A stretch of DNA of 64,000 nt from Elusimicrobiota bacterium (GTDB lineage Bacteria; Elusimicrobiota; Elusimicrobia; UBA1565; UBA9628), in the NCBI GenBank assembly GCA_003151975.1, contig PLZD01000031.1:6571-70570 (forward strand), written 5' to 3'. This document shows positions 22,046 through 64,000 of this stretch, in pieces. A program made the position numbers and the translations under genes. The notes below the pieces were generated by a model. That model had not been told where the DNA came from, did no database searches, and saw only the letters and a list, made by a program, of their open reading frames with translations. Every line of letters begins with the position of its first letter. Within the stretch, counting starts at the first letter, position 1.

Positions 22046-22236
22046 GCGCCCTCCTTTAATGACGCAGGGGAAGCCCGCGAGAGTCCGCGGCTTCCCCTGG
22101 TGGCTCCGGATTACGGTCCGGAGGTGGATGCTCCCCGACCAATCTCGGGGATTACAAGGTCATTTGGAGGTTAGCCCGCAAGGCCCATTGACAGCAGGGC
22201 CGTTAGGCCTATAGACGAATAGGACTTAAGACCTAC

Positions 22237-49383: not shown

Positions 49384-50759
49384 GATTCGATCCCAAGGCG
49401 TTCAAAAAGAAGAAAGCCTGCGTGATCGGCCTGGGGACCTCGGGCCTCGCGGCGGCCAAGCTCCTCGCCAAAAAAGGCTTCAAGGTCTTCGGAACGGACA
49501 CTCGCCCGGCTAAAGAATTACGGAAAAGCCTGCCGCGCCTTCCGGCATCCGTAACTTGGGAGGCAGGCGGCCACAGCGACCGAATCTTGAAGTGCGGCTT
49601 CGCCGTGAAGAGCCCCGGCCTGCCGCCGCACTTGCCCGTCTTCAACAAGTTCAAGGCCGCCGGCATCCCCGTCTTCAGCGAGCTCGAAGTGGCCCTGGCC
49701 TACTCCAAGTGCAGGGAGATCGTCGCCATCACGGGAACCAACGGGAAGACGACGACGACGGCACTGACCGCCGAGATTTTCAAGAAGGCCAAGAAGAAAG
49801 TCTTCGTCTGCGGCAACATCGGCGTGCCGATTTCCGAGCTCGCGCCCAAGGCCGGCGCGCGCGACGTGATCGTCATGGAAGCCTCGAGCTACCAGCTCGA
49901 GGACAGCCGCCACTTCCATCCGCAGGCGGCGGCGATCCTCAACATCACCCCCGATCACCTCGACCATCACGGCAGCATGGCACGCTACATCGACGCCAAG
50001 GCCAAAATCTTCCGCGAGCAAAGCGCCGGCGACGCGTGCGTGTTCAACTTCAACGACGCCATCGTCGTGAAGCTCTCGCGCCGCACGCGCGGGCGCAAGC
50101 TGTTCTTCGCGAGTCAGAATCACGGTCCGGTCCACGCGTGGCCGGCGAAAGGCAAGCTCGTCTTCAAGCTCCCCGGCTCCAAGAAGGAAATCTCGCTGAC
50201 GCCGCCGGCCCTCCCCGGCTCGCACAACCTCGAGAACGCGATGGCCGCCGCTTTGCTGGCGCTCGCCCGCGGCGTCAAGCCCGCCGCGATCCAGGCCGCG
50301 TTCAAGGCCTTCAAGGGCGTCGAGCACCGCATCGAGGAGGCCGGCACGCATCACGGCCTGCGCTGCGTCAACGATTCGAAGGCGACCAACGTCGACTCGA
50401 CGATGGTCGCGCTCAAGGCTTTCGCGGACGCCGCCGACGGCGCCGCGCCGAACATTCTTCTGATCCTCGGCGGACTGGACAAGGGCCTGCCCTACACGCC
50501 GCTCAAGGGGCTCATCACGAAGACCGTCAAAGGGATACTCTCGATCGGCTCGGCCGCGCGCAAGGTGGAGGAAGACCTCAGCGGGCTGGTGCCCATATTC
50601 CCGTGCGGCGACCTCAAGACCGCCGTCGACACAGCTTTTAGAATAGGTTCAAAAGGGGACGTTTTGCTCTTGTCTCCCGCGTGCGCGTCGTTCGACCAGT
50701 TTAAGAATTTCGAGGACCGCGGCCGCCAATTCAAGGAGCTTGTCAGCAGGCTCGGATGA
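49380..50759 (+). CDS. murD: UDP-N-acetylmuramoylalanine--D-glutamate ligase
   Basis: Start at MRFDPKAFKKKKACVIGLGTSGLAAAK (ATGA overlap). ITGTNGKTTT motif. Confidence 0.95.
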   Translation: MRFDPKAFKKKKACVIGLGTSGLAAAKLLAKKGFKVFGTDTRPAKELRKSLPRLPASVTWEAGGHSDRILKCGFAVKSPGLPPHLPVFNKFKAAGIPVFSELEVALAYSKCREIVAITGTNGKTTTTALTAEIFKKAKKKVFVCGNIGVPISELAPKAGARDVIVMEASSYQLEDSRHFHPQAAAILNITPDHLDHHGSMARYIDAKAKIFREQSAGDACVFNFNDAIVVKLSRRTRGRKLFFASQNHGPVHAWPAKGKLVFKLPGSKKEISLTPPALPGSHNLENAMAAALLALARGVKPAAIQAAFKAFKGVEHRIEEAGTHHGLRCVNDSKATNVDSTMVALKAFADAADGAAPNILLILGGLDKGLPYTPLKGLITKTVKGILSIGSAARKVEEDLSGLVPIFPCGDLKTAVDTAFRIGSKGDVLLLSPACASFDQFKNFEDRGRQFKELVSRLG

Positions 50760-51871
50760 ACTTAAGGCGCAGAACCCAGATGGACTACACTTTGCTCGGC
50801 GTCGCGCTCGCGCTGGTCTGCGTGGGTCTCGTCATGATTTATTCCGCCAGCGCAATCTGGGCCGAACAAAATCTCGGCCACTCGCTCTACTTCTTCAAGC
50901 GGCAACTAATCTGGGCGTCGATCAGCCTGTTCGCGATGTCGTTCTTCAGCCGCTTCGACTACAACCGCTACCGCGAGATGGTCCTGCCCATTTTCTTCGT
51001 GACCGTTCTGGGCCTGATCGGGGCGCTGGCGAGCCTGCCGATCGCCGGCGTGCACCGATGGATCCGCGTGGGTCCCATCGGCCTGCAGCCCGCGGAGTTC
51101 GCCAAGCTGACCTCGGTGCTGTTCCTCGCCTATTATCTTGACCGCAAGCGCAGCAAGACGAGCTCACCCTGGTGGGGCCTCGTGGCGCCGACGGCCGTCG
51201 TGTTCGTGCTGCTCGCGCTGATCGGCAAGGAGCCCGACCTCGGCACGCCCTCTCTCATGCTCGTCGTCGCGATGCTCTTGATCTTCATCGGCGGCGGCCA
51301 GCTCAAGCACTTGGGCGCGGCCTTCCTCGCCTTCATGCCGGTGCTGGCCTACGAGCTCATCAAGTATCCCTACCGTCGCGCGAGGATGATGAACTTCCTC
51401 GCGCCGTTCAACGACCCCAAAGGCACCGGCTATCAGCTGGCGCAGGCGATCCTGGCGGTAGGCTCGGGCGGGTGGTTCGGCAAGGGCTTCGGGGCCTCCA
51501 AGCTCAAGCTCATGTACCTGCCGACGCCGCACACCGACTTCATCTTCCCGGTGATCTGCGAGGAGCTGGGCCTGATCGGAGCGCTCGCGCTCTTGGCGTT
51601 ATTTGCCACTTTGCTCGTCCGCGGCACGCGCATCGCCCGCCAGGCGCCCAACCTGTTCGGCACTTTGCTTGCCGCCGGCATCACCTTCACGATCTGCCTG
51701 CAGGCGTTCTTCAACATGGGCATGTCGATCGGCCTGCTGCCGACGAAGGGCATCCCGCTGCCGTTCATCTCGTTTGGCGGCTCGTCCTTGCTTGCGACCT
51801 TGATCGGCGTAGGCGTTCTGCTTAACATCTCGCGGCAGACCCAGGCGGCCGCGCTGGCGCCGCAGAAATAG
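50756..51871 (+). CDS. ftsW: Peptidoglycan glycosyltransferase FtsW (SEDS family)
   Basis: 10-TM SEDS pattern: LQPAEFAKL ... LPTPHTDFIF ... GLLPTKGIPLPFISFGGSS. Confidence 0.9.
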   Translation: MNLRRRTQMDYTLLGVALALVCVGLVMIYSASAIWAEQNLGHSLYFFKRQLIWASISLFAMSFFSRFDYNRYREMVLPIFFVTVLGLIGALASLPIAGVHRWIRVGPIGLQPAEFAKLTSVLFLAYYLDRKRSKTSSPWWGLVAPTAVVFVLLALIGKEPDLGTPSLMLVVAMLLIFIGGGQLKHLGAAFLAFMPVLAYELIKYPYRRARMMNFLAPFNDPKGTGYQLAQAILAVGSGGWFGKGFGASKLKLMYLPTPHTDFIFPVICEELGLIGALALLALFATLLVRGTRIARQAPNLFGTLLAAGITFTICLQAFFNMGMSIGLLPTKGIPLPFISFGGSSLLATLIGVGVLLNISRQTQAAALAPQK

Positions 51872-52986
51872 TGGCCAAGAGAGTCGTCATCGCCGCCGGC
51901 GGCACGGGGGGGCATTTCTACCCGGGGCTCGTGCTGGCCAAGACCCTGCGCTCGCGGGGCTGGCAGCCGCTGATCTTGGTCCGTCTCGACGATCCGGGCA
52001 TCGCGACCCTCGAGCGCGAGGGCATCCCATCCGTCGAGGTCGACCTCCAGGGTCTGCCGAGAAGCCTGAGCCCGAAGCTTGCGGTCTTCGGCTGGAAGCT
52101 CTCGAAGTCGGTGCTGTTCGCGCGCCGGCTGCTGCGCGATTTCAAGCCGGACATCGTCGTCGGCATGGGCGGCTACTTGACGGTTCCTGCGGCGCTCGCG
52201 GCCAAGGCCTCGCGCACGCCGCTTGTGATCCACGACTCCAACGCGGTGCTGGGCCAGGCCAACAAGCTCGCCGCCATGCTCGGCGCGCGGCTTTTCTGGG
52301 GCTTGCCTCCCGTCAAGGGCGGGGGAATCGTAACAGGCACGCCGATTCGACCGGAACTTTGGAAGGTCATGAACTCCGCCGACGCGCGCCGCCGCCTGGA
52401 GCTCGAGCCCGGCAAGACGACCGTGCTGGTCTTCGGCGGCTCGCAAGGCGCCAAGGGACTCAACCGCGAGGCGCCTCGCGCGCTTTGCAACGCCGCCAAC
52501 GCCGCGCCCAACAAGCTTCAGGTCCTGCACCTGACCGGGCCCAAGGAGCACGCCGAGGTTCTGCGCGCCTACGAAGGCTCGCCTCTCGCGGCGAAGGTCC
52601 TGCCGCGCTTGGACGCGATGGAAGCCGCCTACGGCGCCGCCGACCTCGTCTTGTGCCGCTCGGGCGCGGGCACGCTGGCGGAGCTCGCCGCCCAGCGCAA
52701 GCCCGCCGTGCTCGTCCCATTCCCCTTCGCGGCGGAGAATCACCAGGAAGCCAACGCCCGCGTGCTCGAGCGCGCGGGCGCCTCCCTTGTAATTCTTGAG
52801 AAGGACCTGCCGGGCCGCCTCGCGTCGCTGCTGGCCGATTTGCTATTCTCGCCTAAAGGCGCCGAAGAACTTTCCTCGATGTCCGCGGCCTACGCCAAGC
52901 TTTCGCTTCCCAAACCGGAACGGGCCGCCGAGGAGCTCGCCGACGCGATCGAAAATGAAGCCACGAATTCTCGTCTGCAACGATGA
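51871..52986 (+). CDS. murG: UDP-N-acetylglucosamine--N-acetylmuramyl-(pentapeptide) pyrophosphoryl-undecaprenol GlcNAc transferase
   Basis: VIAAGGTGGHFYPGL and the C-terminal ENHQEANA motif. Confidence 0.95.
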   Translation: MAKRVVIAAGGTGGHFYPGLVLAKTLRSRGWQPLILVRLDDPGIATLEREGIPSVEVDLQGLPRSLSPKLAVFGWKLSKSVLFARRLLRDFKPDIVVGMGGYLTVPAALAAKASRTPLVIHDSNAVLGQANKLAAMLGARLFWGLPPVKGGGIVTGTPIRPELWKVMNSADARRRLELEPGKTTVLVFGGSQGAKGLNREAPRALCNAANAAPNKLQVLHLTGPKEHAEVLRAYEGSPLAAKVLPRLDAMEAAYGAADLVLCRSGAGTLAELAAQRKPAVLVPFPFAAENHQEANARVLERAGASLVILEKDLPGRLASLLADLLFSPKGAEELSSMSAAYAKLSLPKPERAAEELADAIENEATNSRLQR

Positions 52987-53689
52987 CGGCATCCACGGCC
53001 CCGGCCTGCCTCCGCTGGTCTCCGCGATGCGGCGCTTGGGATCGGTCACCGTCGTCGTGCCCGACCAAGAACGCTCGGCCGACTCGCACTCGCTGACCCT
53101 CCACAAGCCGATCAGAATCCGGGAAGTCCGTCCCGGCACGTTCACTTTGAACGGAAGTCCCGCCGACTGCGCGCGGCTCGGCATTCTCGAGATCATGAAG
53201 GAGAAGGTCGACCTCGTGGTCTCGGGCATCAACCGAGGCTACAATCTCGGCGAGGACGTGGTCTACTCCGGCACGGTGGCCGCCGCGCGCGAGGCGACCT
53301 TGATCGGCGTGCCCGCCGTCGCATTCTCCCATGCTCCGGAGTCTTCGGCCTACGCCGCATCCGCCGCGTGGGCGCTCAAGATCGCGCGCAAGATTCTCAA
53401 GAGCGGACTTCCCGAGGGAGTCCTGCTCAACGTCAATTTCCCGGGCGGCGCGATCAAGCGGCCGCAGATCGTGCGCCTGGGCCAGCGCATCTACAGCAAG
53501 GACGTGACCAAGCGCTCCGATCCTCGCGGCGGGCACTACTATTGGCTCGCCGGCACGAAGGTCACCAGCGTTCGGGCCAAGGGCACGGATGTGACCGCGA
53601 TCATGGAAGGGCACGCCTCGATCACGCCGCTGCATCTCGACAGCACGGATTTTACGATGCTCGACACTTTGCGCGTATGGGAGTTCTAG
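52955..53689 (+). CDS. surE: 5'/3'-nucleotidase SurE
   Basis: Start at MKPRILVCNDDGIHGPGL. GINRGYNLGEDVVYSGTVAAAREA. Overlaps the murG 3' end by 32 nt. Confidence 0.9.
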   Translation: MKPRILVCNDDGIHGPGLPPLVSAMRRLGSVTVVVPDQERSADSHSLTLHKPIRIREVRPGTFTLNGSPADCARLGILEIMKEKVDLVVSGINRGYNLGEDVVYSGTVAAAREATLIGVPAVAFSHAPESSAYAASAAWALKIARKILKSGLPEGVLLNVNFPGGAIKRPQIVRLGQRIYSKDVTKRSDPRGGHYYWLAGTKVTSVRAKGTDVTAIMEGHASITPLHLDSTDFTMLDTLRVWEF

Positions 53690-54687
53690 CCCTCCTCGCG
53701 GTCTTCGCGGTGGGCGCGGTCTCAGCCCAAGAAATCAGCTCGTCGACCGCCCGACCGGAGGTCACTCTCTCGGCGGTCGGAGACATCCGCTTGAACGGGC
53801 CGGTCGGCGACATCATCAGGGCGCACGGCGCGCAGGCGCCGGTGGCGGCGATCAAGGACTTGCTCTCGGCCGACATCGTCTTCGGAAACCTCGAGACGAG
53901 CGTCACCAAACGCGGCACCAAGACGCCCAAGACCTGGAACTTCCGCAGCCCGCCCCAAAATCTTAAGGCGCTCGATGAGGGCGGCTTTACGATGGTCAAC
54001 CTCGCCAACAACCACGTTTGGGATTACGGCGAAGTGGGCTTCCGCGACACGCTGTCGGCGGTCAAGAAGGCCGGCTTCCTTTATATAGGGGGCGGCAAGA
54101 ACCTCGCCGAAGTCTCGAAGCCGAATATCGTCGAGATCAACGGCATTAAAGTGGGTTTCCTTGGATTTACCAGCACCTTCCCCATGGAGGCCTGGGCCAG
54201 AAAGAACAAGCCTGGCGTCAATTACAGCGACTTCGACAAATTCCCCGCGGTGATCGCGGCGGCCAAGCGCGAGTGCGACGTGCTCGTCGTCTCCTTTCAC
54301 GGCGGTACCGAGCTCGCCGAAGAGCCCAACCAGATCCAGAAAGATTTCATGCACTTGGCGGTCACCGCGGGCGCGGACTTGATTCTCGGCCATCACCCGC
54401 ACGTGCTTCAAGCCGTCGAGGTCTACAAGGACAAGCCGATCCTCTACAGCCTCGGCAATTTTTTGTTCGTCTCACCCGCTCCAGCCACGAGGCCGACGGT
54501 CATCGCCAAGATCACGCTCAACGCGCAAGGCGTCAGCCGCATCGACTTTGTGCCCGTGGACACGAACTGGGGCACGCCCAAGCCCGTCTCGGGCGAGGAG
54601 GCCAAGGCGGTCTTCCAAGCTCTCGACCGCCAGGGCGCCTTGACGCAGTTTCCGCAGCGGTTCAAGGTCCTCTCGTCCGGCTCATGA
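53677..54687 (+). CDS. CapA-family (PGA_cap metallophosphatase-like) secreted protein
   Basis: Signal peptide. LSAVGDIRL ... DIVFGNLETS ... MVNLANNHVWDYG ... VSFHGGTE ... ILGHHPHVLQ. Confidence 0.8.
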   Translation: MGVLALLAVFAVGAVSAQEISSSTARPEVTLSAVGDIRLNGPVGDIIRAHGAQAPVAAIKDLLSADIVFGNLETSVTKRGTKTPKTWNFRSPPQNLKALDEGGFTMVNLANNHVWDYGEVGFRDTLSAVKKAGFLYIGGGKNLAEVSKPNIVEINGIKVGFLGFTSTFPMEAWARKNKPGVNYSDFDKFPAVIAAAKRECDVLVVSFHGGTELAEEPNQIQKDFMHLAVTAGADLILGHHPHVLQAVEVYKDKPILYSLGNFLFVSPAPATRPTVIAKITLNAQGVSRIDFVPVDTNWGTPKPVSGEEAKAVFQALDRQGALTQFPQRFKVLSSGS

Positions 54688-55481
54688 AGCCGCTCTCGAT
54701 TTGGCCCACCGCGCTCGACCTCGCCTGGAACGAGCCCGATAAAAATCTCAGTCTGATCGACGATGCGATCTCGCGTCGTCTCAAGGATCAGACCTTGGTC
54801 TCCGACGAGCTCTTGTTCCTTTTTCCCGAACTGACCTTGACGGGATTTGTCACCAAGGATCCGCCCGGCTTGGTGCTCGGCGAAAGACCGCTCAAGGAGC
54901 TCGCCGAGATCGCGGCCGCGAGAAAGATCGCGATCGCCGCGGGTTTTCCAGAACGCAACCCCGCAGATGCTAAGAAACCCTTCAACTCGCTCGCGCTGTT
55001 CGGCTCCGACGGGAAACTCGTCGCACGCTACCGAAAGCTGCATCTTTTCACCTGGGGCAAGAGCCCCGAGTCCGATGTTTATTCGTGCGGCGACAAGGGT
55101 GTCGTCTGCGAGTACCGCGGCTGGAAATTGGGCCTCGGCATCTGTTTCGACGTGCGCTTCAGCGGACTCTTTCACCAATACGCGCGCTCGAATGTCGACG
55201 CCATGCTCATCAGCGCCTGCTGGGTCGGCGGGCCGCACAAGACTTACCAGTATAAAACGCTCTGTTCCGCGCACGCCATCCTGACCCAATCGTTCGTCGC
55301 GGCGGTCAACCGCTCCGGACGCGATCCCGCCTTCGAGTACGACGGCGCCGAGTACGGCTTTTCGCCCTTCGGCGAGGAGACGGCAAACGGCAAGCCTCTG
55401 GTCCTGGACGCCTCTGCGCTTGAGGCCTGCCGCAAGCTCGTCGTGCGGCCCTCGGACCGGGACGCCTACGAAGTCGGCTGA
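54684..55481 (+). CDS. Carbon-nitrogen hydrolase (nitrilase superfamily) protein
   Basis: FPELTLTGF (Glu), YRKLHLF (Lys) and LGLGICFDVRF (Cys) catalytic-triad contexts. Confidence 0.8.
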   Translation: MKPLSIWPTALDLAWNEPDKNLSLIDDAISRRLKDQTLVSDELLFLFPELTLTGFVTKDPPGLVLGERPLKELAEIAAARKIAIAAGFPERNPADAKKPFNSLALFGSDGKLVARYRKLHLFTWGKSPESDVYSCGDKGVVCEYRGWKLGLGICFDVRFSGLFHQYARSNVDAMLISACWVGGPHKTYQYKTLCSAHAILTQSFVAAVNRSGRDPAFEYDGAEYGFSPFGEETANGKPLVLDASALEACRKLVVRPSDRDAYEVG

Positions 55482-55526
55482 GACCGTCTTGAAGGCCTGG
55501 CGCCGCAAAAGTTAAGATACCTGCCT

Positions 55527-56201
55527 ATGCTCAGCATGCTCCGCAAGATTCCGTTTCTGGGCCAGCTCAAGCCCAAGGACCTGCGCGAGGTCCACAAGAT
55601 TTCGAAGATCCGGGAGTACGGCCCCGGCGAGATCATCTTCACGAAGGCGCAGTCGGCCAATCAAATGTTCGTCGTGCTCTCCGGCCGCATCAAGATCTTC
55701 ACGCACTCGGGCGGCAAGAAGCGCAAGACCTTCGCGTATCTCGAGCCCGGAGACTTCTTCGGAGAAATGGCCCTGCTCGAGGGCAAGTCCCGCTCGGCGT
55801 CGGCCGAAGCGGTCAGCTACTCGCGCCTGCTCGTCATCACCAACACCGAGTTCCGCAAGCTCCTGATGAACGATCCCGAGCTCACGATGTATCTCATGAA
55901 GACCGTCTGCGCGCGCCTGCGCAAGGCCAATGAGGCCATCGAAGGCATGATGTTCCGCAACATCCTCGGCCGCGTGGCCCAGGCGCTCACCGAGCTCGGT
56001 CGGCGCGGGCGCAAGATTCGCGGCGGCATCGAGCTCAACGAGCACTACACTCAGCAGGAGCTCGCCGATCTCGTCGGCACGACCCGCGAGCCGCTCACGC
56101 GCGCGCTCTCCACTTTGCGCCGCGTCCAGCTCATCGAAAGCTCCGATGGCCGCTACTTCATCAAGGATCCGGTCAAGCTCGGGGCCATCGGCCTAGTTTG
56201 A
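55527..56201 (+). CDS. Crp/Fnr-family transcriptional regulator
   Basis: cNMP-binding motif GDFFGEMALLEG..RSASA plus a C-terminal HTH (TQQELADLVGTTREPLTRALSTL). Confidence 0.85.
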   Translation: MLSMLRKIPFLGQLKPKDLREVHKISKIREYGPGEIIFTKAQSANQMFVVLSGRIKIFTHSGGKKRKTFAYLEPGDFFGEMALLEGKSRSASAEAVSYSRLLVITNTEFRKLLMNDPELTMYLMKTVCARLRKANEAIEGMMFRNILGRVAQALTELGRRGRKIRGGIELNEHYTQQELADLVGTTREPLTRALSTLRRVQLIESSDGRYFIKDPVKLGAIGLV

Positions 56202-58006
56202 TGGCTCACCCGCTGGCCACCGGGCTTCGCACGCATCCCTGCGCCGTCCTGACGGCGCAAGACGACCAGAAAGAAGTCACGCTCGCCGGCTGGGTCGACT
56301 CGCGCCGCGACCACGGCGGCCTATACTTCTTCGATCTGCGCGACCGTTCCGGGCTCGTCCAGGTCGTCGCCGAGCCCGAGCACGCCGAAGTCTTCAAGAC
56401 CGCCGAGGGCTTGGGCGCGGAATGCGTCGTCCAAGTGACCGGCGTCGTTCGCCGCCGCCCGAAGGGGGGAGAGAATCCGAAACTCCCGACCGGCGAGATC
56501 GAGATCGCGGCCAAGTCCATCAAGGTCCTCAGCGTCTCAAAGCCGCTTCCCTTCGACATCGCCGAGAACTCCACCGTCAGCGAAGAGAATCGTCTCAAGT
56601 ACCGCTTTCTCGATCTGCGCCGGCGCAAGATGCTCGGCAATCTCACGACGCGCCACACGGTCGCGATGGCCGCGCGCAACGCGCTCGCCGCCGACGGCTT
56701 CATCGAAGTCGAGACGCCGATGCTCACCAAGGCCACGCCCGAGGGCGCGCGCGACTTCCTTGTACCGTCTCGATTGTCGCCGGGGAACTTCTACGCCCTG
56801 CCGCAGTCGCCGCAGATCTTCAAACAGATTCTGATGGTCTCCGGCATCGAGCGCTACTTTCAGCTCGCTCGCGCTTTCCGCGACGAGGACCTGCGGGCCG
56901 ACCGCCAGCCCGAGCACACCCAGATCGACGTCGAGATGAGCTTCGTGACGGAGGCCGACGTCCACGCGGCCGCGGAAAAGATGATGAAGGCCATCTTCAA
57001 GGCGGCGGTCGGCATCGATCTATCGACGCCGTTTCCGCGCCTGGACTACGTCGACGCGATGCGGCGCTTCGGCTCGGACAAGCCCGACCAGCGCTTCGGG
57101 TACGAGATCGTCGATCTGACGGACGTTTTCAAAGACTCGCAGTTCAAGGTCTTCGGCGAGAACGCCCGCGGCGGGGGCGCCGTGCGCGCGATCTCGTGCG
57201 CGGCCGAGTTCTCGCGCTCCGAGGTCGACAAGCTGACCGATCTCGCCAAAGCCCACGGCGCCAAGGGTCTGGCCTGGATCAAGTGGACCACCGCCGGGCC
57301 CGAGTCGCCGATCTTGAAGTTCCTGTCGGGCGGGGAGATCGAGAACATCAAGGAAAAGACCGGCGCCCAACCCGGCTGGTACAGTTTCTTCGGCGCCGAC
57401 AAGGACGCCTCGGTCTCCACGACTCTCGGAGCGATCCGCAAGGAGCTCATCAACAAACTCAAGCCCAAGCCTTCGACTCCCTGGCACTTCTGCTGGATCA
57501 CGCACTTCCCGCTGCTCGAGTGGGAGCCCGAGGAGAAGCGCTGGACCTTCGCGCACAATCCCTTCACCGCGCCGCTCGAAGACGAAATTCCGAAGCTCGA
57601 TACCGAGCCGGGCATGGTCCGCTCGCACCAGTACGATCTCGTCTTGAATGGCGTCGAACTCGCTTCGGGCTCGATCCGCAACCACCGCGCCGATCTGCAG
57701 CGCAAGATTTTCGGTCTCATGGGCTTCGACGCGGACGAGCAGATGCGGCAGTTCGGACTGCTGCTCAACGCGCTCGACTTCGGCGCGCCGCCGCACGGCG
57801 GCTTTGGCATGGGCCTCGACCGCCTCTGCGCGCTCCTCTGCGGCGAAGACTCGATCCGCGAGGTCATCGCCTTCCCGAAGACGCAGAAGGGCACCTGCCC
57901 GCTCTCCGAAGCTCCCGGGCCGGTCAAGCCCAAGCAACTGAAAGAACTCCACATCAAAATAGATCTGCCGCCGGTCAAACCGGCGGCAGACCCACAGACC
58001 GCCTAA
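56201..58006 (+). CDS. aspS: Aspartate--tRNA ligase
   Basis: GWVDSRRDHGGLYFFDLRDRSG, FRDEDLRADRQPEHTQID, GGFGMGLDRL. ATG at 56201 (TGATG junction with crp); the track start at 56198 is a TTG. Confidence 0.97.
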   Translation: MAHPLATGLRTHPCAVLTAQDDQKEVTLAGWVDSRRDHGGLYFFDLRDRSGLVQVVAEPEHAEVFKTAEGLGAECVVQVTGVVRRRPKGGENPKLPTGEIEIAAKSIKVLSVSKPLPFDIAENSTVSEENRLKYRFLDLRRRKMLGNLTTRHTVAMAARNALAADGFIEVETPMLTKATPEGARDFLVPSRLSPGNFYALPQSPQIFKQILMVSGIERYFQLARAFRDEDLRADRQPEHTQIDVEMSFVTEADVHAAAEKMMKAIFKAAVGIDLSTPFPRLDYVDAMRRFGSDKPDQRFGYEIVDLTDVFKDSQFKVFGENARGGGAVRAISCAAEFSRSEVDKLTDLAKAHGAKGLAWIKWTTAGPESPILKFLSGGEIENIKEKTGAQPGWYSFFGADKDASVSTTLGAIRKELINKLKPKPSTPWHFCWITHFPLLEWEPEEKRWTFAHNPFTAPLEDEIPKLDTEPGMVRSHQYDLVLNGVELASGSIRNHRADLQRKIFGLMGFDADEQMRQFGLLLNALDFGAPPHGGFGMGLDRLCALLCGEDSIREVIAFPKTQKGTCPLSEAPGPVKPKQLKELHIKIDLPPVKPAADPQTA

Positions 58007-58127
58007 GCAGTCCCGTTTCAGGCGGTAGTCCCCAGTCGGGCATCGACCTAGGTCTTTAGTCCCATGCGCCGTTTTCTCCAGGGCGCTACTCTTTTCGTAA
58101 TGGCGCTCTACCCGAAAGGAGCCAGCC

Positions 58128-58265
58128 GTGGCGACAGTTCAAGATCATCCCGAAATGATGTCGTTGGAAAGGATCGAAGGAGCCGAGGTCCTGGTGCGCG
58201 CGACGAACTTGCGCTACCGGGTCATGGCCGGTTATTGGATCTGCGTCGGCGTCGGGGCCCAATAA
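58128..58265 (+). CDS. Possible small ORF (45 aa), hypothetical
   Basis: Not in the track. AAGGAG lies 6 nt before the GTG at 58128. VATVQDHPEMMSLERIEGAEVLVRATNLRYRVMAGYWICVGVGAQ. The stop codon abuts the terminator hairpin. Confidence 0.35.
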   Translation: MATVQDHPEMMSLERIEGAEVLVRATNLRYRVMAGYWICVGVGAQ

Positions 58266-58290
58266 AAAGCCCTCCTTCCGGAGGGCTTTG
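58264..58290. terminator. Bidirectional intrinsic terminator
   Basis: aaaaAGCCCTCC ttcc GGAGGGCTttg. Lies between the small ORF (+) and the tRNA-like repeat (-). Confidence 0.7.
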
Positions 58291-58291
58291 T

Positions 58292-58340
58292 TCAAACTGG
58301 TGGACGTGACAGGGATCGAACCTGCGATCTCTTCCTTGCG
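58292..58340 (-). repeat. Direct-repeat copy 1: 49 nt equal to tRNA-Ala(CGC) positions 34-76 (anticodon through CCA) plus a 6-nt trailer. No 5' half is present (att-site-like).
   Basis: The minus strand reads CGCAAGGAAGAGATCGCAGGTTCGATCCCTGTCACGTCCACCAGTTTGA. It contains a T-arm GCAGG/TTCGATC/CCTGT, the acceptor 3' strand CACGTCC, discriminator A, and CCA. Confidence 0.7.
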
Positions 58341-58375
58341 GGCCGAGCCCGCAGCCAGTTAGACGTGGGGGTGGC

Positions 58376-59080
58376 CTAGGCCATGGAGGCGATCCGACGC
58401 ATGAGCGCCATGCACCGCTCAGTCCGTTCCGGACCCTCCCTGCCTGGCCGGAGACTCCCTTCAAGAGCTGGGAGGAATCGATCATGAGCCAGAAGCCGCT
58501 TGAACTCTCGGCCAAGGTACTGGCGGACCTCGGCCGCGGCGGCGTCGACCTTCTGCTCGACCTCGGGGCAGCCATCGAGCAAGGCGATGATATCTTCCAG
58601 ATCCTTGCTGGCCTGGAAGTCCTCGCGGCCGCGATCGCGAAAGGCCGCGAGCTTCGACGCAAGCAGGTACGGCAATGAGAAGACCCGGACGCGCTCCTTG
58701 TTCGGGAGAACAACCTCTTCTGCGTTGGCCATGCCGGTGGGATACCATTGATTGCTGAAACCCAGGACCGCGCCCTTAGTCGGCATCACGTCCACCTTGA
58801 TGCCGGAGAACCGCCAGCGGCAGATCGGGGCATCCTCGCCGACTGCGTGCTTGAAGCCGAGCTTGCGGAGTTCAGCCTCAAGCTCGTGGTATTGACCTGT
58901 TCCCGCGATCTCGACCACGCAGTCCACGTCGTCCGTGGGGCGCGTCGCGGGGGCGGCGGGATCGGTGATGAAGAGGTCGACCGTCGCGCCGCCGACAAAG
59001 ACGACCTTCTGCTTGAGGTCCTTGAGACCCTTGGCCACGACGGCCAGCATGGCGACGTTCTTGGAAGTTTTTCTAGGCAT
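58376..59080 (-). CDS. Nucleotidyltransferase-fold protein, AbiEii/AbiGii-toxin-like
   Basis: VFVGGATVDLFITD...TDDVDCVV fits the GG...DxD polymerase-beta-type NTase motif. 234 aa. 8-nt overlap with the upstream wHTH gene. Confidence 0.65.
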   Translation of the reverse strand: MPRKTSKNVAMLAVVAKGLKDLKQKVVFVGGATVDLFITDPAAPATRPTDDVDCVVEIAGTGQYHELEAELRKLGFKHAVGEDAPICRWRFSGIKVDVMPTKGAVLGFSNQWYPTGMANAEEVVLPNKERVRVFSLPYLLASKLAAFRDRGREDFQASKDLEDIIALLDGCPEVEQKVDAAAAEVRQYLGREFKRLLAHDRFLPALEGSLRPGREGPERTERCMALMRRIASMA

Positions 59081-59594
59081 GCAGTCGGCGCTTCAGTTCC
59101 TCGCCAGCCAGCTGGCGTTCGCGCGCCCGGCCGACCCGGAGAGCGTCGACCAGGGCGAGGAGTTGATGGAGCTTGGGGTCCTTGCTGGCGGCCTCGGGGG
59201 CCGATTCGTAGAGAGGCTCGATGGCCTGGCCCCGGACGTTGCCGTGACCCCAAGGCCAGACGTATTGGTCGTCCTTGTTGGACACGATCTCCTTCGAGAG
59301 GGGGAGAGCCGAATGAGCCGTCGGCATCCCGCGGCAGACCCGGCCCGGCGCCGCGGGATAGGCGTACTTGAGGCCATGCAGAATGAACTCCGCGAGCGCC
59401 GGGCGGATTAGCTTCTTCTTCGAACTGTCGAGAAAGCCCGATTTCTTGCTCCGCTCCAGGGACATGCTGACCTCGGAGAGCGAGAGCCCGAGCTCCTGGG
59501 CCAAGTCAACGAGCCGCCAGGAACGGTCCCCGGAGGTCGCCAGCTTGAGCAGCACGAGCACGTCTTGGGGCTTGAGCCCGCCCGATGATCTCAT
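59073..59594 (-). CDS. Winged-helix DNA-binding protein, candidate cognate antitoxin/regulator (AbiEi-like)
   Basis: Start at MRSSGGLKPQDVLVLLKLATSGDRSWRLVDLAQELGLSLSEVSMSLERSKKSGFL (wHTH). Confidence 0.55.
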   Translation of the reverse strand: MRSSGGLKPQDVLVLLKLATSGDRSWRLVDLAQELGLSLSEVSMSLERSKKSGFLDSSKKKLIRPALAEFILHGLKYAYPAAPGRVCRGMPTAHSALPLSKEIVSNKDDQYVWPWGHGNVRGQAIEPLYESAPEAASKDPKLHQLLALVDALRVGRARERQLAGEELKRRLHA

Positions 59595-59600
59595 GTCCCT

Positions 59601-59639
59601 AGTATAACAGGAGATTTCGCATTTTGCAAATCGCGAAAT
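59601..59639 (-). promoter_or_regulatory. Leaderless-type promoter (TGTTATACT, 6 nt before the ATG) with a 26-nt near-palindromic operator
   Basis: The complement of 59601-59609 reads TGTTATACT. The palindrome ATTTCGCGATTTGCAAAATGCGAAAT is the complement of 59614-59639, with 11 of 13 arm positions pairing. Confidence 0.5.
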
Positions 59640-59661
59640 AGAGAGAGGAAACGGACCCAAC

Positions 59662-59696
59662 AAAAAACCGCCCCAGCGAAACCTCCACTGGAGCGG
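59662..59696 (-). terminator. Intrinsic terminator directly downstream of repeat copy 2 (minus strand)
   Basis: Minus strand: CCGCTCCAG tggaggtttcg CTGGGGCGG TTTTTTG. 9-bp stem including one G-U pair. Confidence 0.6.
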
Positions 59697-59699
59697 CCA

Positions 59700-59748
59700 T
59701 CAAACTGGTGGACGTGACAGGGATCGAACCTGCGACCTCTTCCTTGCG
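59700..59748 (-). repeat. Direct-repeat copy 2 of the tRNA-Ala(CGC) 3' half. The upstream sequence does not form a canonical D-arm or acceptor stem.
   Basis: Minus strand: ...GGGCGTAAAAGGGCCTTAGGTCCTT CGC AAGGAAGAGGTCGCAGGTTCGATCCCTGTCACGTCCACCA. The anticodon-loop context TT-CGC-AA is present, but only 3 of 5 anticodon-stem pairs form and there is no D-arm. Confidence 0.6.
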
Positions 59749-59781
59749 AAGGACCTAAGGCCCTTTTACGCCCCCCGACGG

Positions 59782-59814
59782 GGACCCGATTTGGACCCGT
59801 TTCTCGACGAGAAA
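59782..59814. promoter_or_regulatory. Second copy of the bipartite motif: GGACCC-GATTT-GGACCC + palindrome TTTCTCGACGAGAAA
   Basis: Read directly. The palindrome core is the reverse complement of the one at 41366-41380. Confidence 0.5.
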
Positions 59815-59937
59815 CCGGCTTGCATCGGGTTACATGGCCTGACATGGCTTTATGCCGCTTTTCACCGCGACTTGGCATAAACTGCGGACCGTAAATTCAG
59901 TCGTACCACCTCGACTCGGCACCGTCTGAACGGAAAC

Positions 59938-59946
59938 ATTATACCA
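59938..59946 (-). promoter_or_regulatory. Orphan extended -10 box TGGTATAAT on the minus strand, pointing toward repeat copy 2
   Basis: The complement of 59938-59946. No convincing ORF lies downstream before the tRNA-like element. Confidence 0.4.
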
Positions 59947-60023
59947 GACGATCGCCTCCTGGCGTTCAACGAAGTTCGTTATGACCTCACCTTCGAGACC
60001 GTAGAAATTTGAGCGATCCTTGA

Positions 60024-60053
60024 TTGGACTTTCGCGGGGTCTCGCCATATAAT
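60024..60053 (+). promoter_or_regulatory. Promoter TTGGAC-18 nt-TATAAT for the gene at 60144 (about 85-nt leader containing a GTCTC/GAGAC hairpin)
   Basis: TTGGAC at 60024-60029 and TATAAT at 60048-60053. GGGAGGAGGA Shine-Dalgarno sequence before the ATG at 60144. Confidence 0.5.
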
Positions 60054-60143
60054 CGGGACAAGTATGCAACGCGGCGACCCTGAAATAATTTCGTTGCCGG
60101 AAGCTCCAGAAGAGTCTCGCCCGGGAGACCGGGAGGAGGACAT

Positions 60144-60713
60144 ATGAGAAAACACAACAAGCCGTGGAAGGCGCTGCAGGATGGTCTCTCGGAAGCCATC
60201 AAAGGGGCGGGCGACGTCGGCGTCGCCATCGTCGACACCGTCGCCGACATGCTAGGGGTCGCGCTCCAGGACTCGGGAAAGCTCGGCGCTTCCGCGCTGG
60301 GCACCGTCTCCGAGATCGCGGGCGCCGTAGTCCAGGCGGCCGCGAAAGTCGGCGGGGAGATTGGCCTGGTGGCCAAGGGCTTCCTGCTCGGCCTGCTGAG
60401 AGCTACTGAAGAGACCGGGGAGGAGGCGTTGGCGACTATCGGCCACGCCGCCGGGTCTTTCATGAAGCAGACCGGCGCGGTGGGCGGCGACCTTTGCGCC
60501 GCGGCCACCGGGCTCGTTGAGGGCGCGATCGCGCTCGCCAAGGAGCTCGGCCTCGACGCGGTCGATGCCGGCTCGACGGCCGCGCAGGCGGCGCTGGAGG
60601 CGGCCTACGAAGTGAGCGCCACCGCGGGCGACAAGGTCCGTGACGCGCTCAAGGGTACCATCTCGGGCATCAAGGTGGTGCTCAAGGAGCCCTTCCGGAC
60701 GCCGGACCGCTGA
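60144..60713 (+). CDS. Hypothetical Ala/Gly-rich helical-repeat protein
   Basis: 189 aa, strong Shine-Dalgarno sequence, repetitive A/G/V-rich amphipathic segments. I recognise no family. Confidence 0.6.
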   Translation: MRKHNKPWKALQDGLSEAIKGAGDVGVAIVDTVADMLGVALQDSGKLGASALGTVSEIAGAVVQAAAKVGGEIGLVAKGFLLGLLRATEETGEEALATIGHAAGSFMKQTGAVGGDLCAAATGLVEGAIALAKELGLDAVDAGSTAAQAALEAAYEVSATAGDKVRDALKGTISGIKVVLKEPFRTPDR

Positions 60714-60787
60714 CAACGTGGCACACGGGATCAGGTCCCGGGGGATTCTGACCCCCGGGGCCGCCCGGGGACTTCCCAGGAGGACCT

Positions 60788-61264
60788 ATGAAGAGAATAT
60801 TCTTGGCGCTGACCATCCTCATGACGGGCAGTACGGTCTGGGCACAGCAAGCCGGGCAGTTCGGCGCGGGTGTCATCCTTGGTGATCCGACCGGACTGAC
60901 CGTCAAGTATTGGCTCGACGGCACGAAGGCCATCGACGCCGGCGTCGGGTTCAGCGGGGACGCGACCCTCTATACCGACTTCCTCTGGCACAGCTGGGAC
61001 ATCCTGCCGCAGCCCAAGCAGGGTAAGCTGGGCCTGTATGTCGGGGGCGGTCCTCAGATCGATACCGAGGATTCGACGGAATTCGGTATCCGTGCGATTG
61101 GGGGCATCGACTATTGGATCGCCAACCACCCCATCGAGCTGTTCCTCGAAGGAGGCCCGGCGTTCATGCTGACGACCGAGAACGATGAAGACCGCGAGAT
61201 AGACTTCAACGCCGGTCTCGGCGTGAGGTTCTACTTCGGCGTGACCGGAGGCGGGAAGAAGTGA
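60788..61264 (+). CDS. Small outer-membrane beta-barrel protein
   Basis: Signal peptide MKRIFLALTILMTGSTVWAQQ. Alternating beta-strand pattern. C-terminal GLGVRFYFG. Confidence 0.7.
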   Translation: MKRIFLALTILMTGSTVWAQQAGQFGAGVILGDPTGLTVKYWLDGTKAIDAGVGFSGDATLYTDFLWHSWDILPQPKQGKLGLYVGGGPQIDTEDSTEFGIRAIGGIDYWIANHPIELFLEGGPAFMLTTENDEDREIDFNAGLGVRFYFGVTGGGKK

Positions 61265-61279
61265 TTTCCCGAAATCGCC

Positions 61280-61963
61280 ATGAGGAATCCCGCGGCGATG
61301 TGCCTCCTCTGCTTGAGCGCGTTGGCTTGGGCGACGGAGGAGGGAACTGAGAATCCGTCACCGACGGCACAGTCGTCGGGGGCGGACCCGGCCCACCAGC
61401 GCACCTTCCGGATCATGCTGTCTCAATCGGAGAAGATCGACCGCTACGATGCGCTGATCCTCAGATACTCTCAGAACCGGCGGCTTAATCCGCGCCTGGT
61501 CAAATCCGTCATCGCCGCTGAGTCCGGGTTCTACAAGGGGGCGCTGTCCCCCAAAGGAGCCCGAGGCTTGATGCAGATCTTGCCGCGGACCGCCGAGGAG
61601 ATGGGAGTGAATCCCGAACAGCTCCGTGACCCGGAGTCTAACCTGCGCGCCGGGACGGCATACCTGAGCTGGCTATACCGGACGGCTTGGAAGGCGTACG
61701 GGCTTGAAGGCGTCAGTTTTCGCGATGGGCCGCCGTGGGCTCAGCGCCGAGTGATCGCCGCCTATAACGGCGGACCGAGACAGCTCTATCGGCGACAATG
61801 GCCGAGGCAGACACAGCTCTACGTGCGGGAGGTCATGCTCTACTACCGCTCGCCGGTGACGACTTTGCGTGCGCGGCGGCTTCCTTTGGCTCCGGCGCTT
61901 CCCTCCGCCGCACTGACCGCGTGTTTCCCTGAACCGGAGGGCCCTGGGCGAAAGGTTTTGTAA
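61280..61963 (+). CDS. Lytic transglycosylase (SLT domain) protein
   Basis: VKSVIAAESGFYKGALSPKGARGLMQILPRTA ... AYNGGP motifs. Confidence 0.85.
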   Translation: MRNPAAMCLLCLSALAWATEEGTENPSPTAQSSGADPAHQRTFRIMLSQSEKIDRYDALILRYSQNRRLNPRLVKSVIAAESGFYKGALSPKGARGLMQILPRTAEEMGVNPEQLRDPESNLRAGTAYLSWLYRTAWKAYGLEGVSFRDGPPWAQRRVIAAYNGGPRQLYRRQWPRQTQLYVREVMLYYRSPVTTLRARRLPLAPALPSAALTACFPEPEGPGRKVL

Positions 61964-62049
61964 GAGAATTGAGCGGCGTTTTGTTTTGGCGGAGGTATAT
62001 TATCATCAGGACCTAGACCAGTTCCTCAAGGCCGGAAGGAGGCTTCAAC

Positions 62050-62700
62050 ATGGAGACTGAGATGCGAGGATCGTTCGGCTGGCGATTGGTCCTTCTGGAG
62101 TTATGCGCTGTGTCCATCGCGGCCGGCGGCTCCATGGATTGGGAGCAGGCGCGCCGCTTCGCCGCCCAGGCCGAGCCTGCGCCCTGGACGAAAGACATCG
62201 TGTCAGCCCATATCTCGGACTGGCCGGAAATTCCGAGGCTCGAGGCCGGCAAGATCATGGACAAGTACGGCCTCCCGGACGAGATCACGGCCAATTCGCT
62301 CGTCTGGAAAGAGCGCGAGGATTGGTCGAGGGTGGCGCTTTATCGCAACGAGGATTTCGCGCACCGCTCGGGCGTGCTCGAACAGAGCATCGACTACGCG
62401 GTTCCGATGGACCGCTGGCGGGACTTGAACGCCCTGGATATCGGCGTCTCCTATGTCCCCGAGGAAGAAATTCTGGTGGCCAGCTCCGAGAGCGAGGAAA
62501 TCAATACGCTCGCTCTCAATATCGTCGTGGACGTGGTCAAGGGCCGGCGCCAGGTCGAGGTGGCGCGGAACTTTTACCGCAGAACCCTCGACCTGGCCCT
62601 GTCGGGGAAGTCTTCGCGCTATACGCGGGGATTGCTTTTCTCTCCCGAGCGGCACCGGACCACGCGACGGCCGCCGTGGCCCCAGCAGCTCAGGCCGTAG
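62050..62700 (+). CDS. Hypothetical secreted protein
   Basis: 216 aa, GGAGG Shine-Dalgarno sequence, hydrophobic N-terminus. I recognise no motif. Confidence 0.5.
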   Translation: METEMRGSFGWRLVLLELCAVSIAAGGSMDWEQARRFAAQAEPAPWTKDIVSAHISDWPEIPRLEAGKIMDKYGLPDEITANSLVWKEREDWSRVALYRNEDFAHRSGVLEQSIDYAVPMDRWRDLNALDIGVSYVPEEEILVASSESEEINTLALNIVVDVVKGRRQVEVARNFYRRTLDLALSGKSSRYTRGLLFSPERHRTTRRPPWPQQLRP

Positions 62701-62752
62701 TCACTATAGAAGGATTTGGCGCGGCTGTAATAAGTTATAGAATGGGGCATCA

Positions 62753-63889
62753 ATGACAAACCGCGCGATTCGCATCCTTTTGATTGACGACGACGACGAC
62801 GAGGTCGTCTTGCTGCGCGAAATGCTCTCCGCCATCGGCAAGGACGACTATGCCTTGGAACAGGCGGCCACATACGCGGAAGGGCTCGCGGGCCTGCGGT
62901 CCGGACAGCACGACGTCGCTCTTGTAGATTACCGTCTCGGACCCCGGGACGGACTCGATCTCATGCGCGAGGCCAAGAAGCTGGGCTGCCAGACGCCGAT
63001 GATTTTCCTGACGGGCATGGGCCGCCACGAGATCGACCTCGAGGCCATGGGGGCCGGCGCCGTCGACTATTTGGCGAAAGGCAAGGTCGATCCCGAGTCT
63101 TTGGAGCGATCGATCCGGTACGCCGTGGAGCGCAAGACTCTAGAAGCGATGTTCGTCCAATCCGAGAAACTCTCCGCCATGGGCCAGCTCGCCGCGGGGC
63201 TGGCGCACGAGCTCAACAATCCGTTGATGCTGATCATCGGCACAGTCAAGACTTTGCTTGAAGCCGAACCCGTGGACCCGCACCTAGCCGAAGCCTTGAA
63301 GAGGATCGACCGCTCCAGCGAGCGCTGCCGCGAACTCGTGCGCGAGCTGCTGGCCTTCTCTCGCAAGGACGAGTCGCCATCTCACGAATTCGATCTCACT
63401 GAGGCCGTCGTCGCCGCCCTATCATTGGTCAAGACCCAGGCCAAGATACAGGGAGTTGCCATTGAGAACGAAGCGCCCCACATCCCTTTGAAGATTCTGG
63501 GGCATAAAAGCCACATCGAGCAGGTCGTCATCAATCTCTGCAACAACGCGCTCGACGCCATGCCTACGGGAGGACGACTCTCTATCCATCTCGGACGCAC
63601 GCACCGCAAGCAGCGCGATTTCGCGCAGGTTAAGGTCAGCGATACGGGTCCCGGAATACCAGCGAAGCTCATGGGCAGAATCTTTGAGCCGTTCTTCACC
63701 ACCAAGCCCGCGGACAAGGGGACGGGCCTCGGTCTGTCCATCATTCAAAAGTTGGTGCACCAACACGGCGGCGAGGTCGAGGTCGCGAGCGTCGAGAAGA
63801 GGGGCACCTCCTTCACCGTGACCTTGCCGTTGGCCGAGACGAAGCGCTCGCGGAGCACCCGACATGCGACACAAGATCCTGGTCGTTGA
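62753..63889 (+). CDS. Hybrid response-regulator receiver / histidine kinase (REC-HisKA-HATPase_c)
   Basis: [13 protein letters not shown]...DVALVDYRL (REC), [10 protein letters not shown] (H-box), DTGPGI and GTGLGLSI (G-boxes). Confidence 0.9.
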
Positions 63890-64000
63890 CGACGAGGCGG
63901 AGAACCGCTCCTTCCTTAAGGGGATTCTTGAGCGGGAAGGTTTCAGCGTCGCGGCCGCGCAGGAGGCCAGAGAAGCCCTCGCCTCGGCCGGGGAGTCCTC
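63864..64000 (+). CDS. Response regulator receiver protein (partial; runs off the window end)
   Basis: [39 protein letters not shown]. Confidence 0.8.
   Translation, partial: MRHKILVVDDEAENRSFLKGILEREGFSVAAAQEAREALASAGES

Follow-up and report, generated by a model that had tools for sequence, protein, structure and literature searches.

In the signature left by genomic islands that integrate into tRNA genes, a regenerated tRNA gene is accompanied by a displaced tRNA fragment, and both anticodon-centred sites and tandem arrays are documented (Islander, PMC4383910); the sublocation classes of Williams (2002) are taken here as cited in that paper. Cis-mobilizable elements (CIMEs) keep both attachment (att) sites, attL and attR, have lost their integration genes, and often lie in tandem with another element after accretion (PMC5704250). 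The first descriptions of CIMEs and of tandem accretion concerned elements related to ICESt1 in Streptococcus thermophilus (reviewed in PMC5704250). Among toxin-antitoxin systems, the type IV system AbiE pairs the winged helix-turn-helix (wHTH) antitoxin AbiEi with the DUF1814 nucleotidyltransferase AbiEii (PMC3985639), and the PDC systems of PADLOC are candidate systems (10.1101/2024.01.29.577857). Here we analyse an islet of ~1.4 kb, repeats included, at positions 58292-59748 of a 64-kb stretch of contig PLZD01000031.1 from an Elusimicrobiota bacterium (the whole stretch is called the window), in which a toxin-antitoxin cassette lies between two direct repeats of a tRNA-Ala(CGC) 3′ part. We consider it likely that elements integrated at tRNA-Ala(CGC) form a tandem array at this locus, and that the islet is an att-flanked, integrase-less, CIME-like remnant within it.

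Like a CIME, the islet keeps both att sites without integration or transfer genes, and it would lie in tandem with an element at the same att site. It differs from the described CIMEs in its uncultured Elusimicrobia host, its tRNA-Ala(CGC) target and its toxin-antitoxin cassette as sole content; furthermore, no functional partner or integrase is seen here, and both cis-mobilisation and descent from a conjugative or mobilizable element are putative. As in Islander islands, the ends are marked by a displaced fragment of the tRNA 3′ part, in the same orientation, several fragments stand at one tRNA, and the identity block runs from the anticodon loop past the CCA. Unlike those islands, the islet has no integrase, its regenerated tRNA is not in view, and it falls below the 2-kb lower limit, so that Islander filters such islets out by design. 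The feature type itself is familiar, an ordinary scar of successive island insertions into a tRNA gene followed by decay, and the islet leaves the current understanding of island biology unchanged. From an uncultured phylum, it would illustrate cleanly how islands that target tRNA genes accumulate and erode to an addictive cassette and att scars. Being shorter than 2 kb and devoid of an integrase, such units are discarded by standard island finders, and programs that search for tRNAs may take the junction for a degenerate tRNA.

Two copies of a tRNA-Ala(CGC) 3′ part

The islet is bounded by 49-nt direct repeats, copy 1 at 58292-58340 and copy 2 at 59700-59748, which share one orientation and have a single difference, A in copy 1 for G in copy 2 at a variable-loop position. 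When the 64-kb window was searched for the 49-mer with up to three mismatches, these two sites were the only ones found, and none of 100 shuffled sequences contained a match. Read on the minus strand, both copies are CGC-AAGGAAG-AG(G/A)TC-GCAGG-TTCGATC-CCTGT-CACGTCC-A-CCA-GTTTGA, that is, positions 34-76 of tRNA-Ala(CGC) (43 nt) followed by the 6 nt GTTTGA. The first-pass annotation, made from the sequence alone, had described the repeats in these terms, one mismatch included, and had proposed a comparison with the 3′ half of a genuine tRNA-Ala(CGC). Such tRNAs are available from related genomes (loci fetched from other genomes and contigs for comparison are given L-numbers). Indeed, an intact 76-nt tRNA-Ala(CGC), GGGCGTGTAGCTCAGCTGGGAGAGCGCTTCCTTCGCAAGGAAGAGGTCGCAGGTTCGATCCCTGTCACGTCCACCA, is present in eight related loci, and its last 43 nt, comprising the T-arm, the acceptor 3′ strand with U70, A73 and CCA, are identical to copy 2 in all eight. 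The repeats are the 3′ part of a genuine tRNA-Ala(CGC). In a scan of GTDB representatives (one genome per species), the 28-nt T-arm/acceptor segment was found at no fewer than 118 loci, nearly all of them intact tRNA-Ala genes (CGC, GGC or UGC) of Elusimicrobia, Acidobacteriota and Bdellovibrionota.

No intact tRNA accompanies the repeats within reach. ARAGORN at default settings predicts no tRNA gene in the window, and Rfam at its gathering score finds no tRNA there, in line with the earlier remark that none was visible. The source contig stretch (L001, from an ENA metagenome assembly) is identical to the window over 50144-64000 and reaches 6.7 kb past the window end, where only two-component and unknown genes are found; ARAGORN likewise predicts no tRNA gene in L001, these 6.7 kb included. 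The mltG gene has no match in the window or L001. Between the repeats there are two genes only, and tblastn with two tyrosine integrases found next to tRNA genes in other genomes (L066 and L121) gave no match in the window or L001. The description of att duplicates of the tyrosine-integrase type around a toxin-antitoxin islet devoid of a recombinase gene thus holds in each of its parts, from the repeats and the two-gene content to the integrase searches. Unless lost, the intact tRNA and any integrase are to be sought >11 kb past copy 2. Neither an exact match to the 43-nt or the 28-nt att sequence nor a toxin relative was found among viral contigs, so there is no evidence that the elements are phages.

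Two junctions with different flanks

Copy 1 is joined to native chromosome. Directly beyond it, at 58265-58290, a hairpin (GCCCTCC-GGAA-GGAGGGC) with a T-run is read from the sequence as a bidirectional terminator, which serves the tRNA on the minus strand, standing behind its 3′ end, and on the plus strand comes after a small open reading frame (ORF) and aspS. Alignment and blastn show that L038 and L102 keep this terminator behind their intact tRNA-Ala(CGC), and L087 has it behind an orphan tRNA 3′ half. Copy 1, the terminator and the next ~90 nt, a stretch that includes the small conserved ORF, align downstream of the intact tRNA with 78% identity over 173 nt in L038 and 89% over 81 nt in L102. 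Because this flank aligns to the regions downstream of the tRNA in relatives, copy 1 is the original tRNA 3′ end still on its chromosomal flank, and hence the outermost att site, holding the displaced 3′ part. The gene order in L102 (aspS 74% identical) and L061 is histidine kinase, response regulator, mltG and tRNA-Ala(CGC), converging on aspS; judged from gene order, the ancestral tRNA-Ala(CGC) is placed tail-to-tail with aspS. The closest relatives of both aspS and the toxin are Elusimicrobia among the matches listed. Copy 1 gives no tRNA-like match with Rfam or ARAGORN at relaxed settings.

The small ORF between aspS and the terminator (58155-58265, plus strand) encodes 36 aa, MMSLERIEGAEVLVRATNLRYRVMAGYWICVGVGAQ; L038 conserves the C-terminal half (…EGAEVLVLSSNLRYRVMAGRWVCVGCGAG), and the ORF is thus possibly a genuine small gene. 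A scan also returned a 17-pair inverted repeat, GTGGGTCTGCCGCCGG-TTT-GACCGGCGGCAGATCTAT, at 57959-57995 on the minus strand, inside the last aspS codons and terminator-like on that strand.

Copy 2 has a different flank. Its identity to the genuine tRNA extends over 48 nt (positions 29-76) when the 5 nt TCCTT at 59749-59753 are counted. Outside it, the 133 nt at 59749-59881 (minus strand) are homologous to the neighbour of the orphan half in L087 (79% identity over 180 nt when the repeat is included; when it is left out, 72% over 136 nt, E 5.8e-11), and we take them to be the conserved end, or arm, of a second element. L087 and L079 come from a single contig, on which the orphan lies at ~1.4 kb and the intact tRNA-Ala(CGC), with mltG upstream, at ~21.3 kb; as the two are 19.9 kb apart on the same contig and in the same orientation, the orphan closes a 19.9-kb insertion. 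The L087 arm runs straight into the native-type terminator, and the toxin-antitoxin islet and copy 1 therefore form one extra unit in the window. Because the outer 133 nt match the island-side flank of the L087 orphan, we read copy 2 as the internal att site at the junction of the islet with the second element and not as a dead tRNA; it should not be annotated as a tRNA pseudogene. The arm holds a tRNA-like stretch, GGGCGTAAAAGGGCCTTAGGTCCTT, and a palindrome, TTTCTCGACGAGAAA (59800-59814), which recurs at the tRNA-proximal (left) end of a second islet at tRNA-Val (L129), with variants in L066, L079, L093 and L121; this recurrence suggests a shared element family.

The possibility that copy 2 is itself the original tRNA-Ala(CGC), with a 5′ half that decayed in place through D-arm deletion and substitutions beside a single island, was weighed against the same junction. 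The first-pass annotation had drawn here a GGGCGTA heptamer pairing with six of seven acceptor positions, three of five anticodon-stem pairs and no D-arm; ARAGORN, in relaxed/mitochondrial settings only, returns the same drawing as a D-arm-less tRNA-Ala(cgc). Rfam aligns 59709-59773, copy 2 and upstream sequence, to the full tRNA model with 19.1 bits (gathering score 29), so that between this score and the empty default ARAGORN result there is no complete canonical tRNA-Ala at copy 2. A tRNA decaying in place would explain this alignment, the acceptor pairs and the extra 5 nt of identity relative to copy 1. We nevertheless regard it as extremely unlikely: the same 133 nt of non-tRNA sequence stand beside the L087 orphan, in a genome whose intact tRNA is 19.9 kb away, and the mltG gene and tRNA promoter expected upstream are absent. 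Furthermore, the heptamer reads GCGCGCG in L087, with two of seven "acceptor" positions changed and uncompensated, which argues against a conserved tRNA-like fold. As a candidate decayed tRNA 5′ half, the stretch GGGCGTA...TCCTT upstream of copy 2 was rejected, being conserved island-arm sequence homologous to L087. Of the earlier suggestion of a decayed island whose tRNA 5′ half was lost, decay can be retained for the islet itself, whereas the sequence upstream of copy 2 is island arm and not a 5′ half.

The best fit among the explanations first put forward is a tandem-island array with its true tRNA outside the window, in keeping with the native flank of copy 1 and the L087-like flank of copy 2. 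In the tandem-array reading, an element with a tyrosine integrase would have recombined in the segment of the tRNA from the anticodon loop to the 3′ end, duplicating 43 nt of tRNA and 6 nt beyond it and pushing outward the native 3′ part, now copy 1, which stayed attached to the terminator and aspS of its native flank. The same site would have been used, before or after the first element, by a second one with a different arm, leaving copy 2 as an internal junction with the arm of the second element on its outer side. Either insertion order gives the observed layout. The inner element would then have eroded to the cassette and a terminator, keeping both att sites and no recombinase.

Several points weigh against this reading. 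The array is incomplete as seen, because neither an intact tRNA-Ala(CGC), nor a third att copy, nor a match to the L066 and L121 integrases occurs in the window or the 6.7 kb beyond it; the regenerated full-length tRNA that Islander expects at the proximal end is absent from the same range. The arms of the islet are very short (~50 nt left, 35 nt right) and have nothing in common with other islands, and the descent of the islet from a larger, integrase-bearing island is something we infer. An intermediate form of decay was not found at this locus, and the nearest comparison is a homologous cassette directly after an integrase at tRNA-Glu in L121. As for the second element, its arm abuts copy 2, whereas neither its body nor an integrase nor its far end turned up in the window or L001. 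Its homology amounts to 133 nt and rests on one other genome, and no integrase was found in the 13 kb read of the L079/L087 insertion, whose middle 8 kb lies outside those parts; that insertion is accordingly defined only by the tRNA and the orphan half at its ends.

The sequence past the arm also belongs on this side of the balance. An AT-richer non-coding stretch (59882-60143, GC ~0.53) has no homology in any fetched locus; it could belong inside the second element or mark a junction left by rearrangement, and includes a promoter-like site for the gene of a 189-aa protein that follows. This protein, the SLT transglycosylase and the two-component systems beyond are not obviously island cargo. 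The 189-aa gene (region 60144-61963) has seven homologs among 5.8 billion proteins, all on short contigs. In its relatives (L133, the contig of P0241) it stands after an SLT transglycosylase gene and before a 149-aa gene and mnmA, whereas in the window the 189-aa gene is followed by a 158-aa gene and then SLT. Because the neighbourhoods differ in this way, gene order has been rearranged near the att site, and the second element may be large (>11 kb) or may be no more than a stub fused to rearranged chromosome.

The cassette here and in other genomes

The content of the islet is a 1.26-kb cassette and a terminator, with two overlapping genes on the minus strand. The upstream gene (59073-59594) encodes a wHTH protein of 173 aa, the putative antitoxin and repressor, and overlaps by 8 nt the start of the second gene (58376-59080), which encodes the putative toxin, a DUF1814/AbiEii-like nucleotidyltransferase with a GG...DDVD motif that is 234 aa long here and 224 aa long as called in the database. 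The toxin matches Pfam AbiEii (PF08843; E 3.4e-7, 30.9 bits against a cut-off of 22.5), PADLOC PDC-M21B (E 1.1e-65) and PADLOC AbiEii (E 7e-5). The antitoxin matches PADLOC PDC-M21A (E 2e-46), shows weak matches to Pfam MarR_2 and to an ArsR-like NCBIfam family, both below cut-off, and has no match to the Pfam AbiEi families that make up the two-domain AbiEi. These Pfam and PADLOC profiles agree with the initial identification of a wHTH gene and an AbiEii-like nucleotidyltransferase gene as the only genes of the islet, and the adjacent pair matches both PDC-M21 profiles.

As in AbiE, the genes are bicistronic and overlapping with the antitoxin first, an inverted-repeat operator lies at the promoter, and the toxin has an AbiEii domain. 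The islet differs from AbiE in its short antitoxin (173 aa) without AbiEi Pfam domains and in the weakness of the AbiEii match of its toxin (3e-7 in Pfam, 7e-5 in PADLOC). Because the antitoxin misses the AbiEi families and PDC systems are candidates, we file the cassette under PDC-M21 and call it only AbiE-like. For annotation, it is a candidate defence or addiction module, and its site a recombination hotspot.

A promoter and operator are predicted at 59601-59639 on the minus strand. The promoter-like TTGCAA-17-TATACT has its −10 element ending 6 nt before the ATG, and the mRNA is probably leaderless. A 26-nt palindrome, ATTTCGC-AT-TTTGCAAA-TC-GCGAAAT (59614-59639), overlaps the −35 element; a leaderless promoter and a palindromic operator proper to the cassette had both been recognised at the outset. 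Promoter and palindrome are conserved upstream of the homologous pairs compared (L121, L123, L128, L129 and L132), and the conserved operator is suggestive of autoregulation. The wHTH protein would repress the near-leaderless promoter through this operator and would neutralise the AbiEii-like toxin; the cassette likely persists as an addictive or defensive module. Directly after copy 2, on the minus strand, the islet supplies its own terminator, a hairpin with a T-run at 59666-59698, which would have ended the tRNA transcript while copy 2 belonged to the tRNA. Each copy is thus followed by a different intrinsic terminator, as first described, with hairpins at 59698-59666 for copy 2 and 58290-58265 for copy 1.

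The toxin has 4257 homologs at E ≤ 1e-5, and among the best 120 the named ones are almost all from Elusimicrobia; a metagenome scan with back-translated toxin peptide patterns, which are very specific, gave three loci. We compared eight cassette contexts, the window included. An antitoxin gene of 173-174 aa stands upstream of every homologous toxin examined, and the islet DNA is 70-76% identical to five other contexts, but only between the operator and the toxin stop. In L121, tRNA-Glu(CTC) is followed by an integrase, the antitoxin and toxin genes (toxin 70% identical), further genes and an HTH_17 gene. The cassette, the HTH_17 gene and a ~250-aa gene recur as in L121 on a short contig without tRNA or repeat (L128). 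In L129/L130, where an integrase is lacking, an intact tRNA-Val(CAC) is followed by the cassette, ~355 nt and 22 nt that repeat the 3′ end of the tRNA-Val. The remaining contexts (four of the eight) are chromosomal sites without repeats. From these contexts, the cassette is often carried by islands, and in two cases it is all that an att-bounded unit contains. In the tRNA-Val case the antitoxin-toxin islet spans 9294-11100 of L129 (also seen in L130 and L131), and the 22-nt repeat, GGTTCAAATCCTGCACCGCCCA, lies 1735 nt on.

The occurrence of two integrase-less islets of this family at different tRNAs, independent of each other, bears on another possibility, namely that the islet is a miniature non-autonomous element with a minimal attP that entered as a 1.4-kb circle, moved in trans by the integrase of an island. 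That the islet contains almost only the cassette, and that it adjoins the arm of another element, as expected if the integrase of that element acted on it, would fit as well. Yet the two islets have identity blocks of different extent, 49 nt from the anticodon in the window and 22 nt from the T-loop in L129, so that a common mobile unit with its own attP is not seen. Tried as an attP shared with the tRNA-Val islet, the islet ends were rejected, having nothing in common with it outside the cassette. Moreover, the right arm is merely 35 nt long, most cassette contexts lack repeats (the four chromosomal sites and the short contig L128, of eight), and neither a circular form nor an empty-site variant was found. 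We therefore consider a mini-element mobilised in trans, one of the initial proposals, unlikely, and find no support for it in the islet ends. A broader version, in which PDC-M21-family cassettes would be the smallest integrase-parasitic elements (~1.4-1.7 kb, a tRNA-matching core with an addiction module), moved in trans at different tRNAs, we judge quite unlikely. The differences between the islets in identity blocks and ends favour independent decay over one self-defined mini-element.

Islands and scars at other tRNA genes

Insertions of various sizes are found at tRNA-Ala in other genomes. Besides the 19.9-kb insertion of L079/L087, one of ~20 kb is present in a Dormibacterota contig (L092/L069). 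In an Acidobacteriota genome (L115, 5152-6240), tRNA-Ala(CGC) has an orphan 3′ half ~1 kb downstream and no integrase, and this islet carries a single 198-aa gene with a signal peptide and a PEP-CTERM-like C-terminus. In eight Elusimicrobia genomes, a spacer of just 56-125 nt separates the intact tRNA-Ala(CGC) from an orphan of its last ~48 nt. Read in order of size, the tRNA-Ala sites of other genomes form an apparent decay series from large insertion to short spacer.

The short layouts raise the alternative that an older, short tandem duplication of the tRNA 3′ part later received the cassette by illegitimate or homologous recombination, so that the unit was never mobile between att sites. 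Such tRNA-spacer-orphan arrangements are common at tRNA-Ala in relatives, and the edges of the cassette are sharp and context-independent, with many sites outside islands. Against this stands the fact that the short-spacer lineage has a different anticodon stem and keeps its intact tRNA; the window islet is unlike the conserved short spacer, and two further genomes have homologous cassettes linked directly with an integrase or with att repeats of a tRNA. An insertion into a pre-existing duplication is thus very unlikely in our view.

The first-pass annotation had also suggested, as its least conventional explanation, that tRNA-half modules are reused as transcript 3′ ends, for example as processed or CCA-tagged tRNA-like termini with a function as RNA. 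The terminator after each copy and the conserved, co-varying hairpin upstream of orphan halves in relatives are compatible with such a role. However, the copies are antisense to nothing; what lies upstream is the toxin gene for copy 1 and non-coding arm DNA for copy 2, and the acceptor 5′ strand is not conserved. Integration at a tRNA fully accounts for their positions, orientation and flanks, and functional RNA modules are barely conceivable as the explanation of this locus; the tandem array of elements at tRNA-Ala(CGC) remains the reading we prefer.

The short-spacer loci are L003, L014, L024, L037, L070, L104, L110 and L116 (e.g., L024 7613-7740, reverse strand). Their spacer is conserved and contains an inverted copy of the anticodon-stem 5′ strand (CGAACGAGGCGC). 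It forms a hairpin with an AGCA loop and apparently compensatory stem changes (GGCGCC/GGCGCC, GGCGGC/GCCGCC, GCGGCC/GGCCGC and GGAGCC/GGCTCC), and might represent either a small structured RNA or an attL-attR scar with almost nothing in between.

The two tyrosine integrases used as queries lie directly downstream of tRNA genes, at 1859-3079 of L066, beside a tRNA-Ala(CGC) identical to that of the relatives, and at 8105-9376 of L121, beside tRNA-Glu(CTC), and are 54.5% identical to each other. The left ends of L066 and L121 have in common TTATCGACGGAGAA, a terminator hairpin and a TGCCAT-repeat promoter region. By these resemblances, the two integrases look like members of one island family that has switched tRNA targets.

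Elsewhere in the window, 22092-22162 on the minus strand strongly matches the 2′-dG-II purine riboswitch aptamer (Rfam RF03165) with 84.3 bits (gathering score 60, E 1.9e-20).

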